Notes under the pieces: model-generated
What the model was told of the DNA's origin: nothing
The model's input: the letters and a program-made list of their open reading frames with translations, nothing else
The model's database searches: none
Assembly (NCBI RefSeq): GCF_017348835.2
Contig: NZ_CP071375.1
DNA: 64,000 bases
Direction: 5' to 3' (one strand)
DNA from: Escherichia coli
Lineage (GTDB): Bacteria > Pseudomonadota > Gammaproteobacteria > Enterobacterales > Enterobacteriaceae
Translations under genes and position numbers: made by a program
Part shown: in pieces, positions 24,486 through 27,774 of the stretch
Layout of the letters: every line of letters begins with the position of its first letter
How positions within the stretch are numbered: position 1 is the first letter of the stretch

Positions 24486-27182
24486 ATGTTTAAAGAAATT
24501 TTTACCCGGCTCATTCGCCATTTACCTTCCCGTCTGGTTCATCGCGATCCATTGCCTGGCGCGCAGCAGACAGTGAATACGGCGGTCCCGCCGTCCTTAA
24601 GTGCGCATTGCCTGAAAATGGCGGTGATGCCCGAAGAAGAATTATGGAAAACGTTCGACACCCATCCGGAAGGGTTAAATCAGGCGGAAGTGGAATCTGC
24701 CCGCGAACAACATGGTGAAAATAAATTACCCGCACAACAACCGTCGCCGTGGTGGGTACATTTATGGGTCTGCTATCGCAACCCATTTAATATTTTACTC
24801 ACCATTCTCGGCGCTATTTCTTACGCCACGGAAGATTTATTTGCCGCGGGCGTTATCGCGCTAATGGTCGCTATTTCTACGTTGCTGAACTTTATTCAGG
24901 AAGCACGTTCCACTAAAGCGGCAGATGCCCTGAAAGCGATGGTCAGCAATACTGCGACGGTGCTGCGCGTAATTAACGACAAAGGCGAAAATGGCTGGCT
25001 GGAGATCCCGATCGACCAGCTGGTGCCCGGCGATATTATAAAACTGGCGGCGGGGGATATGATCCCGGCAGATTTACGTATCTTGCAGGCGCGGGATCTG
25101 TTCGTCGCTCAGGCGTCGTTAACCGGTGAGTCTCTGCCCGTAGAAAAAGCAGCTACCACTCGCCAGCCGGAGCACAGCAATCCGCTGGAGTGCGACACCC
25201 TGTGTTTTATGGGCACCACCGTGGTGAGCGGCACGGCACAAGCAATGGTGATTGCTACAGGTGCCAATACCTGGTTTGGTCAACTGGCGGGGCGTGTTAG
25301 TGAGCAGGAAAGCGAGCCGAATGCCTTTCAGCAAGGGATCAGCCGCGTCAGTATGCTGCTGATTCGCTTTATGCTGGTGATGGCTCCGGTGGTGCTGTTA
25401 ATCAATGGTTACACCAAAGGCGACTGGTGGGAAGCGGCACTGTTTGCGCTTTCGGTCGCGGTAGGCTTAACGCCGGAAATGTTGCCGATGATTGTTACCT
25501 CGACGCTGGCGCGCGGCGCAGTAAAGCTGTCGAAACAGAAAGTGATCGTCAAACATCTGGATGCTATTCAGAACTTTGGCGCAATGGATATTCTGTGCAC
25601 TGATAAAACTGGCACCCTGACACAGGACAAAATTGTGCTGGAGAATCATACCGATATCTCCGGTAAAACCAGCGAACGCGTGCTGCATAGCGCGTGGTTG
25701 AACAGTCATTATCAGACCGGACTTAAAAACCTGCTCGATACAGCGGTGCTCGAAGGTACGGATGAAGAGTCAGCGCGCTCGCTGGCCAGTCGTTGGCAAA
25801 AAATCGATGAGATTCCGTTTGATTTCGAGCGTCGCCGGATGTCGGTGGTAGTGGCAGAAAATACCGAGCACCATCAGCTGGTTTGCAAAGGTGCATTGCA
25901 GGAAATCCTCAATGTGTGTTCGCAGGTGCGTCACAATGGCGAGATTGTGCCGCTCGATGACATCATGCTGCGTAAGATTAAGCGGGTTACTGATACGCTG
26001 AATCGTCAGGGGCTGCGCGTGGTTGCGGTGGCGACGAAATACCTGCCAGCGCGTGAAGGAGATTACCAGCGGGCGGATGAATCCGACCTGATCCTCGAAG
26101 GATATATTGCTTTCCTTGATCCGCCAAAAGAGACAACTGCTCCGGCACTGAAGGCATTAAAAGCGAGTGGAATTACCGTAAAAATCCTTACTGGCGACAG
26201 TGAGTTAGTTGCAGCGAAAGTGTGCCATGAAGTGGGGCTGGACGCGGGAGAGGTGGTCATTGGTAGTGATATTGAAACGCTATCTGACGACGAACTGGCA
26301 AATCTCGCACAGCGCACCACGCTGTTTGCTCGTCTGACGCCGATGCATAAAGAACGCATTGTGACCTTACTGAAGCGCGAAGGGCATGTGGTTGGCTTTA
26401 TGGGCGATGGTATTAATGATGCGCCCGCCTTACGCGCTGCGGATATCGGCATTTCTGTGGACGGCGCGGTAGATATTGCCCGTGAAGCGGCTGATATCAT
26501 CCTGCTGGAAAAAAGCCTGATGGTGCTGGAAGAGGGGGTTATTGAAGGACGTCGCACTTTCGCCAACATGCTGAAATACATCAAAATGACGGCGAGCTCC
26601 AACTTCGGTAATGTGTTCAGCGTGCTGGTGGCGAGTGCTTTCTTGCCCTTCCTGCCGATGTTGCCGTTACACTTGCTTATTCAGAACCTGCTGTATGATG
26701 TGTCACAGGTGGCGATCCCGTTTGATAACGTCGACGACGAGCAAATTCAAAAGCCGCAGCGTTGGAACCCGGCGGATCTGGGGCGCTTTATGATCTTCTT
26801 CGGACCGATCAGCTCGATCTTCGATATTCTGACGTTTTGCCTGATGTGGTGGGTATTCCATGCCAACACGCCGGAAACGCAAACGCTGTTCCAGTCGGGA
26901 TGGTTTGTGGTGGGCTTACTGTCGCAAACGCTGATTGTGCATATGATCCGCACCCGCCGTGTGCCGTTTATTCAGAGCTGTGCATCGTGGCCGTTAATGA
27001 TCATGACCGTGATCGTGATGATTGTCGGGATCGCATTGCCGTTTTCACCGCTGGCCAGTTATCTGCAGCTGCAGGCGCTGCCGTTAAGCTATTTCCCGTG
27101 GCTGGTTGCGATTCTGGCAGGGTATATGACATTAACCCAGTTGGTGAAAGGGTTCTATAGCCGTCGTTACGGCTGGCAATAA
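24486..27182 (+). CDS. mgtA: Mg2+-importing P-type ATPase
   Basis: 898-aa ORF with the P-type ATPase phosphorylation motif (CTDKTGTLT) and GDGINDAPAL motif. Confidence 0.95.
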   Translation: MFKEIFTRLIRHLPSRLVHRDPLPGAQQTVNTAVPPSLSAHCLKMAVMPEEELWKTFDTHPEGLNQAEVESAREQHGENKLPAQQPSPWWVHLWVCYRNPFNILLTILGAISYATEDLFAAGVIALMVAISTLLNFIQEARSTKAADALKAMVSNTATVLRVINDKGENGWLEIPIDQLVPGDIIKLAAGDMIPADLRILQARDLFVAQASLTGESLPVEKAATTRQPEHSNPLECDTLCFMGTTVVSGTAQAMVIATGANTWFGQLAGRVSEQESEPNAFQQGISRVSMLLIRFMLVMAPVVLLINGYTKGDWWEAALFALSVAVGLTPEMLPMIVTSTLARGAVKLSKQKVIVKHLDAIQNFGAMDILCTDKTGTLTQDKIVLENHTDISGKTSERVLHSAWLNSHYQTGLKNLLDTAVLEGTDEESARSLASRWQKIDEIPFDFERRRMSVVVAENTEHHQLVCKGALQEILNVCSQVRHNGEIVPLDDIMLRKIKRVTDTLNRQGLRVVAVATKYLPAREGDYQRADESDLILEGYIAFLDPPKETTAPALKALKASGITVKILTGDSELVAAKVCHEVGLDAGEVVIGSDIETLSDDELANLAQRTTLFARLTPMHKERIVTLLKREGHVVGFMGDGINDAPALRAADIGISVDGAVDIAREAADIILLEKSLMVLEEGVIEGRRTFANMLKYIKMTASSNFGNVFSVLVASAFLPFLPMLPLHLLIQNLLYDVSQVAIPFDNVDDEQIQKPQRWNPADLGRFMIFFGPISSIFDILTFCLMWWVFHANTPETQTLFQSGWFVVGLLSQTLIVHMIRTRRVPFIQSCASWPLMIMTVIVMIVGIALPFSPLASYLQLQALPLSYFPWLVAILAGYMTLTQLVKGFYSRRYGWQ

Positions 27183-27239
27183 AGAATAAACTGGGCACGA
27201 TAGCCCCGATTCAGATTGCAGACAAAGTAAGCTTTGTTC

Positions 27240-27335
27240 ATGCCGGATGCGGCGTAAATGCCTTATCCGGCCAACAAATTCAATAAATTGCAGGAATCAC
27301 GTAGGCCTGATAAGCGTAGCGCATCAGGCGATTTT
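27240..27335. repeat. REP elements between mgtA and ridA
   Basis: gccggatgcggcgtaaatgccttatccggcc and gtaggcctgataagcgtagcgcatcaggc REP cores. Confidence 0.55.
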
Positions 27336-27387
27336 GCGTTTGTCATCAGACTTAATCCGGGCATGATAGCCCGGATTTCCATCAAGA

Positions 27388-27774
27388 TTAGCGACGAACA
27401 GCGATCGCTTCGATCTCAATTTTCACGTCTTTCGGCAGACGGGCAACTTCAACGCAAGAACGTGCCGGGAAGGTGGCATTGTGTTCGGTGAAGAAGGCTT
27501 CGTAGGTAGCATTAACGGTTGCGAAGTCGTTCAGATCTTTCACAAACACGGTGGTTTTAACGATGTCGCCCACTTTCAGGCCTGCGGCTTCGACGATCGC
27601 TTTTACGTTATCCAGCGACTGACGTGCCTGTGCAGCGACGTCTGCCGGTACTTCGCCCGTTTTCGGATTTACCGGGATCTGGCCGGAGGTGATGATCATA
27701 TTGCCCAGATCAACGCCCTGTACGTAAGGACCGATAGCTGCCGGTGCATTTTCCGTCGCGATAGTTTTGCTCAT
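27388..27774 (-). CDS. ridA: Enamine/imine deaminase RidA (YjgF)
   Basis: Internal Met start (MSKTIATENAPAAIGPYVQGVDLG...) gives 128 aa matching RidA; the 152-aa track ORF is over-extended. Confidence 0.9.
   Translation of the reverse strand: MSKTIATENAPAAIGPYVQGVDLGNMIITSGQIPVNPKTGEVPADVAAQARQSLDNVKAIVEAAGLKVGDIVKTTVFVKDLNDFATVNATYEAFFTEHNATFPARSCVEVARLPKDVKIEIEAIAVRR

Follow-up and report, generated by a model that had tools for sequence, protein, structure and literature searches.

Two similar hairpins flank a REP-bearing spacer between the convergent genes mgtA and ridA in Escherichia coli, which raises the question of whether a terminator was duplicated when REP sequences were inserted or expanded there, as a preliminary description of the locus had proposed, or whether the two hairpins have separate histories. 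The window that we analyzed is a stretch of 64,000 nt from E. coli (assembly GCF_017348835.2, contig NZ_CP071375.1), in which a 205-nt spacer separates mgtA on the plus strand from ridA on the minus strand, with pyrI and pyrB beyond. The RefSeq annotation of identical E. coli loci agrees with the naming of the two genes, and the layout of the spacer in K-12 strain MG1655 is identical to that in the window. The arrangement of hairpin, BIME-1, and hairpin involves an element of known kind, at a locus that K-12 has as well, and is a real but minor local curiosity. Its parts and the genes on either side are the following.

24486..27182, plus strand: mgtA, coding sequence of a Mg2+ P-type ATPase, stop codon TAA at 27180-27182 (list of open reading frames and RefSeq annotation of identical E. 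coli loci).
27187..27211, plus strand: left (mgtA-side) hairpin copy, TAAACTGGGCACGATAGCCCCGATT, a degenerate paralogue of the ridA-side hairpin (repeat search, folding, and outgroup comparison).
27211..27241, plus strand: left outer motif of the BIME-1, TCAGATTGCAGACAAAGTAAGCTTTGTTCAT, common to the BIME-1 copies at rnr-rlmB, fepA-entD, cueO, and others.
27242..27275, plus strand: Y-type REP (palindromic unit), GCCGGATGCGGCGTAAATGCCTTATCCGGCCAAC (inverted repeats, five-locus alignment, and fold).
27276..27300, plus strand: L linker with the IHF-like site ATTCAATAAATTG (five-locus alignment; PMC3333891, PMC2817692).
27301..27329, minus strand: inverted Z-type REP, GTAGGCCTGATAAGCGTAGCGCATCAGGC, a Z1 by the definition of BIME-1 as Y + L + Z1 (PMC3333891).
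27330..27349, plus strand: right outer motif of the BIME-1, GATTTTGCGTTTGTCATCAG, common to other BIME-1 copies.
27353..27377, no strand assigned: right (ridA-side) hairpin copy, TAATCCGGGCATGATAGCCCGGATT, 10 nt past the ridA stop codon (repeat search, folding, and outgroup comparison).
27388..27774, minus strand: ridA, which codes for 128 aa and ends in a minus-strand stop codon (27388-27390).

Judged by alignment, the repeat between the hairpins is one complete, ordinary single-copy BIME-1 (RIB/RIP) of 139 bp, at 27211-27349. We defined its ends by aligning five loci, the window copy and four others, among which conservation begins at 27211 (TCAGATTGC...) and stops at 27349 (...GTCATCAG). 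BIME-1 elements are composed of a Y REP, a long conserved L linker with an IHF site, and a Z1 REP, occur as single copies (PMC3333891, PMC2817692), and have a size of about 140 bp (PMC1187871). The Y and inverted Z REPs of the window are nearly identical to those at the four other loci, with a Y REP tail that reads CCAAC, not CCTAC. The linker AAATTCAATAAATTGCAGG aligns with the linkers of the other copies and is about 11 nt shorter than in all four of them; its ATTCAATAAATTG has one mismatch to the IHF consensus WATCAANNNNTTR, a predicted site at which the linker may bind IHF. The linker has one match in the window, so there is no tandem array. The outer motifs are presumably those named 'A' and 'B'. 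In genomes that lack the BIME-1 haplotype, a portion of the left flank has a match elsewhere, in the rnr-rlmB spacer, right-flank matches elsewhere lie at ybiA-rhlE, at fepA-entD, and in a plasmid-borne cueO region, and a metagenome scan with the right-end motif identified further distinct loci with the same ends.

The element has the features of the BIME-1/RIB/RIP family, namely inverted Y and Z REPs, an IHF-like L linker, a length of about 140 bp including outer motifs, a single copy, an extragenic position between convergent genes, and presence/absence polymorphism among strains; nothing essential sets it apart, and the direct repeat of a hairpin that brackets the window copy is no feature of the family. 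The earlier picture of REP sequences that were inserted or expanded gives way here to one complete single-copy BIME-1 with conserved outer motifs. That the hairpin copies bracket it is correct: the last base of the left copy, 27211, is the first base of the element, and the right copy follows 3 nt after 27349.

Several other repeats in the region proved to be parts of the same structures. A 24-nt inverted repeat (27203-27226 and 27339-27362) that could be taken for MITE-like terminal repeats is explained by the outer motifs together with the palindromic hairpins. The likeness between CAGATTGCAGAC, which follows the left copy, and CAAGATTAGCGAC, at the ridA 3' end after the right copy, would extend the duplication; we consider it a coincidence because CAGATTGCAGAC is a BIME-1 outer motif that is present at other loci. 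Similarly, the ATCAGA upstream of the ridA hairpin in the alternative E. coli haplotype described below was rejected as homology, CATCAG being the conserved BIME-1 end. An Rfam search of the region returned sub-threshold REP-derived matches only, among them naRNA4 on the Y REP (27236-27272, minus strand) with 34.3 bits against a gathering score of 59.5, which reflects REP similarity only. At cueO, one variant (L102, metagenome contig ULMB01007240.1) carries an extra unit of outer motif and Y REP in tandem, a local BIME expansion.

The direct repeat had been described as two 21-mers, at 27193-27213 and 27359-27379, that match at 17 of 21 positions. Both are present as described, and our repeat search extended the match to 25 nt (27187-27211 and 27353-27377) with 21 identities. 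A degenerate 19-mer that describes the hairpins has two sites in the 64 kb, both of them the hairpin copies, where 0.06 are expected, and two occurrences were obtained in none of 100 shuffles; when either copy is compared with the approximately 128,000 25-mers that the window contains, no unrelated one scores above 17-18/25. For a control with natural hairpins we took stem-loops from the window and 80 other loci and aligned them by their centres, which gave 3.2 million pairs. The number of pairs decreased about threefold with each added match, from 191,605 at 12/25 to 1,535 at 17/25, and the pairs scoring above 18/25 were orthologous or REP hairpins; by extrapolation from this distribution, roughly 1e-5 of unrelated stem-loop pairs would reach 21/25 or more. 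The loops of the two copies are asymmetric (ACGATA and ATGATA) and match as a direct rather than an inverted repeat, and the outer TAA...GATT is alike too; the direct orientation of the loop match identifies the pair as a direct duplication of a palindrome. By these measures the two hairpins are truly related, beyond chance, and the earlier suggestion of a duplicated hairpin stands in the sense that the copies are related rather than convergent.

The two copies differ in strength. In the right copy the stem is perfect over 9 bp (AATCCGGGC/GCCCGGATT), of which the perfect ccgggc/gcccgg stem noted previously is a part, with a 6-nt loop and a folding energy of -16 to -17 kcal/mol on either strand. 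The left copy in the window has a 4-bp GGGC/GCCC stem only (-8.2 kcal/mol); in other alleles its stem has 5-6 bp, and its stability over alleles ranges from -6.8 to -11.7 kcal/mol. Both are GC-rich stem-loops placed just past the two convergent stop codons, as are intrinsic terminators and REP-type stabilizers of mRNA 3' ends, and to this extent the term "terminator-like" used for them earlier is loosely justified. Unlike Rho-independent terminators, however, neither stem is followed by a T/U run (the tails are CGATTCAGATT and TTCCATCAAG and, on the minus strand, AAGTCTGATG), and a consensus terminator scan made no call at either hairpin, for which reasons a terminator role is unproven.

To place the two copies in E. 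coli, we surveyed 5,426 complete genomes of the species. The left flank is present in 4981/5426 and the right flank in 4980/5426, and the spacer region is uninterrupted in 4676/5426. In 441/5426 genomes the hairpins and the BIME-1 are replaced by an open reading frame (ORF), which gives a clean polymorphism of two alleles, hairpin-BIME-1-hairpin in 92% of genomes and a 151-aa HTH/membrane ORF in 8%. The left copy is confined to the haplotype that bears the REPs, given the near-equal numbers of genomes with either flank and the fact that none of the outgroup loci listed has a left copy; to this extent the earlier interpretation is partly supported. An empty site, that is, a single hairpin or two tandem hairpins without a BIME-1, was found in none of the 5,426 E. 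coli genomes, 10 further assemblies, and outgroup loci listed.

The ORF encodes 151 aa; according to its translation and Pfam, it begins with an HTH_Tnp_1 domain and is hydrophobic in its C-terminal half (loci L003, 1145-1600, minus strand; L004, 3900-4466; L007; L015; L023; and L093, 1953-2408). Its annotation as a "transposase" might suggest a REP-associated Y1 enzyme, for which the hairpins would be the ends of an element; with HTH_Tnp_1 and a hydrophobic tail it is no Y1/HUH enzyme, and the label is probably mistaken, since the ORF keeps its place in several genera and no IS ends can be seen around it. The same synteny in four other genera is the reason why we take the ORF haplotype as ancestral, so that the hairpin-BIME-1-hairpin haplotype is probably derived, and the state it replaced was probably a spacer with the 151-aa ORF and not a single hairpin lacking REPs. 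In their flanking genes the two E. coli haplotypes hardly differ, indicating that the polymorphism moves by recombination.

The outgroup set comprised 539 kb of loci obtained through MgtA, among the matches listed; E. albertii is the only Escherichia outside E. coli in it, and E. fergusonii, E. marmotae, and Salmonella are not represented. The mgtA-ridA spacer is very variable across these loci. An ORF of about 150 aa on the ridA strand occupies it in E. albertii, Citrobacter sp. FP75, Pseudescherichia vulneris, and Phytobacter, and in two genera (L014 and L019) it measures 37-42 nt and holds one bidirectional terminator. The spacers of Pseudocitrobacter, a Proteobacteria MAG, and an Enterobacter contain REP-type palindromes, each of its own family (L010, 3900-3998; L011, 3900-4105, the Proteobacteria MAG; and L013, 3900-4070); since these REPs belong to separate families, the same spacer has been colonized independently in several genera.

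Within this variable spacer the hairpin next to ridA persists. In E. albertii (L004) and Citrobacter sp. FP75 (L007) it reads AATCCAGG...CCTGGATT, with a compensatory A:T pair where E. coli has G:C, and in this position the ORF haplotype of E. coli carries a variant, AACCCAGG...CCTGGATT. A search of 650 kb for the stem pattern AATCC[AG]G...C[CT]GGATT found it only adjacent to ridA, in E. coli, E. albertii, and Citrobacter, which identifies the right copy as the ancestral ridA 3' hairpin, older than the BIME-1. Position and stem make the right copy an orthologue of the hairpin beside ridA in E. albertii and Citrobacter sp. FP75. No counterpart of the left copy was found in the outgroup loci listed, where the best 25-mer scores 18/25 and lies inside genes. 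The preliminary description had named one outcome that would count against a duplication linked to the REPs, namely that both hairpins pre-date them and have independent origins; in the outgroups, the ridA-side hairpin alone pre-dates the REPs.

The left copy also differs from the right copy in its variability. Among about 16 sequences that we read, the left copy has at least 6 alleles, including CTGGGCACGATAGCCCCGATT, CTGGGCATGGTGGCCCGGATT, and CTGGACATGGTGATCCGGATT, and in about 16 E. coli sequences with the BIME-1 haplotype the right copy is invariant. BLAST identity across all genomes agrees: left-flank matches fall at 80-90% identity in 724 genomes and at 90-95% in 951, and right-flank identity is below 95% in 14 genomes only. 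The left copy is the weaker of the two and hypervariable, and probably a younger, far less constrained duplicate that is decaying. Its two main alleles differ at 4 positions, and one of them equals the right copy at each, as expected if the left copy diverged from a right-like ancestor or was occasionally converted by the right copy. These 4 differences lie within 10 nt (window 27193-27211; same positions in L084, L085, L086, L096, L097, and L099), with 0-3 differences in the surrounding 180 nt; the left copy is a polymorphism hotspot, and one left allele has a compensatory change from a G:C to an A:T pair. Such clustering suggests gene conversion or templated mutation, not simple drift or independent point mutations, and either process could inflate the likeness between the hairpin copies. 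The lineages of E. coli that seem basal in a tree of the right flank (ridA-pyrB) carry a left allele with a GGTG loop, a weak pattern given evident recombination; if these lineages are basal, the match between the loop of the window allele and that of the right copy would be secondary. Trees of the flanking genes rooted on E. albertii left the alleles of the left copy unpolarized, because the flanks are nearly identical and recombination is evident, and the long branch of L093 in the flanking-gene tree is an artefact of its shorter sequence.

To determine whether BIME-1 elements elsewhere are bracketed in the same way, we compared the flanks of nine other BIME-1 loci. None has a flanking direct repeat, the best ungapped flank scores being 4-7 versus 14 at mgtA-ridA. 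The duplication is therefore specific to this locus and is no regular footprint of insertion, and BIME-1 insertion does not normally duplicate its target. As a separate observation, at 8 other loci (rnr, rhlE, cueO, L104, L105, L110, L122, and L172; the flanks include L087, 578-600, L088, ~545-575, and L091/L109), and so at most of those examined, one end of the BIME-1 has on one side an unrelated terminator-like hairpin whose foot is 0-5 nt away. This adjacency may reflect a rule of BIME-1 placement, either targeting of hairpin feet or selection at 3' ends. A literature search on mgtA together with REP and terminator found nothing relevant, and to our knowledge the mobilization of BIME-1 is still not understood.

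How, then, did the second hairpin arise? Five points are established: how the locus is built, that the two copies are homologous, how old the right one is, that the left one is restricted to the BIME-1 haplotype, and that flanking repeats are lacking at the other loci. Because no intermediate allele with single or tandem hairpins but without a BIME-1 was found, we infer the order of events from these points, and we likewise infer their direction and any function in termination, RNA stabilization, or IHF binding. On balance we think it probable that the haplotype is derived, that the right copy is the original, and that the left copy is a local duplicate produced by a one-off event and not by a regular footprint of BIME-1. 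In this account the right copy (27353-27377) would be the original ridA 3' stem-loop, whose position and stem sequence are kept in E. albertii and Citrobacter, most likely a 3'-end or terminator-type RNA structure for ridA that perhaps also blocks read-through from mgtA. The left copy (27187-27211) would have arisen as a local duplicate in a lineage from which the ancestral 151-aa ORF had gone, along with the terminator that it shared, and together with the REP stem-loops of the BIME-1 it may now supply the 3' structure of mgtA. Either the BIME-1 entered the junction of two tandem hairpin copies, or insertion of the element and copying of the palindrome happened together in one irregular event; as BIME-1 ends commonly adjoin hairpins, insertion at the junction of tandem hairpins would be unremarkable. 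The repeat around the REPs, suspicious at first, resolves into a standard BIME-1, its boundaries now drawn correctly, and a local duplicate of the ridA 3' hairpin.

Alternatively, the insertion itself may have generated the repeat: the BIME-1 would have entered a single bidirectional hairpin by breaks staggered across the whole palindrome, such as one nick at each foot of a hairpin that had been extruded, and gap filling would have copied 25 bp, like a very long target-site duplication. A single event would then account for everything, the gaps between repeats and element ends are 0 and 3 nt, the left copy and the BIME-1 are always found together in the 5,426 genomes, and the short single-hairpin spacers of L014 and L019 demonstrate that such a starting state is viable. 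Direct repeats directly outside both ends of a dispersed element do resemble the target-site duplication of a transposon; however, 25 nt is far longer than usual, the repeat spans a whole palindrome, and it is missing at the nine other BIME-1 copies compared. The Y1 (HUH) transposases linked to REPs and BIMEs, of the IS200/IS605 type, do not make larger target duplications (PMC2817692, PMC3333891). No genome, further assembly, or listed outgroup locus preserves the empty site that this scheme starts from, and the outgroups and 8% of E. coli have a spacer with the ORF, not a single hairpin. We consider this origin rather unlikely. A related reading, that the duplication is a rare preserved footprint of BIME-1 entry at the foot of an extruded hairpin (a cruciform or a single-stranded stem-loop) with both sides cleaved and the whole palindrome copied, is doubtful in our judgment. 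If it were true, then hairpin-foot targeting would, together with the hairpins 0-5 nt from BIME-1 ends, be a rule of BIME-1 dispersal. A duplication that is an insertion footprint would offer a small clue to the mechanism of that dispersal; otherwise the locus has no broader consequence.

It is conceivable that each gene has its own GC-rich 3' stem-loop and that common stems such as GGGC/GCCC and CCGGG/CCCGG made the two look alike; similar GC cores do occur beside other BIME-1 copies (ATGCCGGGCataGCCCGGCAT at rhlE and ATGCCCGGagagatCCGGGCAT at cueO), and the stem of the left copy in the window is merely GGGC/GCCC. However, stems of this kind explain neither an agreement of 21/25 that includes the asymmetric loop and the outer TAA...GATT, a level reached by about 1e-5 of unrelated natural pairs, nor the fact that, at each of the four positions where the two main left alleles differ, one of them equals the right copy, and convergence is very improbable. 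Direct and inverted repeats around the REPs give the region a transposon-like look, but that the hairpins are part of the mobile unit, as outer motifs, MITE-like terminal repeats, or a dispersed motif, and travel with the BIME-1 is scarcely credible, for, the outer motifs aside, neither flank is repeated in E. coli genomes (the right one has one place per genome), the extra places of the left flank match the 27211-27241 motif only, and conservation among the other copies stops at 27211 and 27349.

Some of the interrupted spacers mentioned above are insertions of IS621 (IS110 family), an element whose targeting of REP sequences is documented (PMC1525189). In E. coli Res13-Lact-PEA14-20 (L002, 1716-2990), IS621 lies in the Z REP of the mgtA-ridA BIME-1, at GTAG|GCC (equivalent to window 27304/27305), with the junctions cacgtAG|atactgtt and atacaAG|gcctgataag. 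These insertions are later and strain-specific, and they have no bearing on the hairpin duplication. In strain 2009C_3612 (L089, ~505-525), gtagATACTgataagcg replaces gtagGCCTgataagcg, and 5 nt of it look like a scar from the left end of IS621 that remained after deletion or excision.
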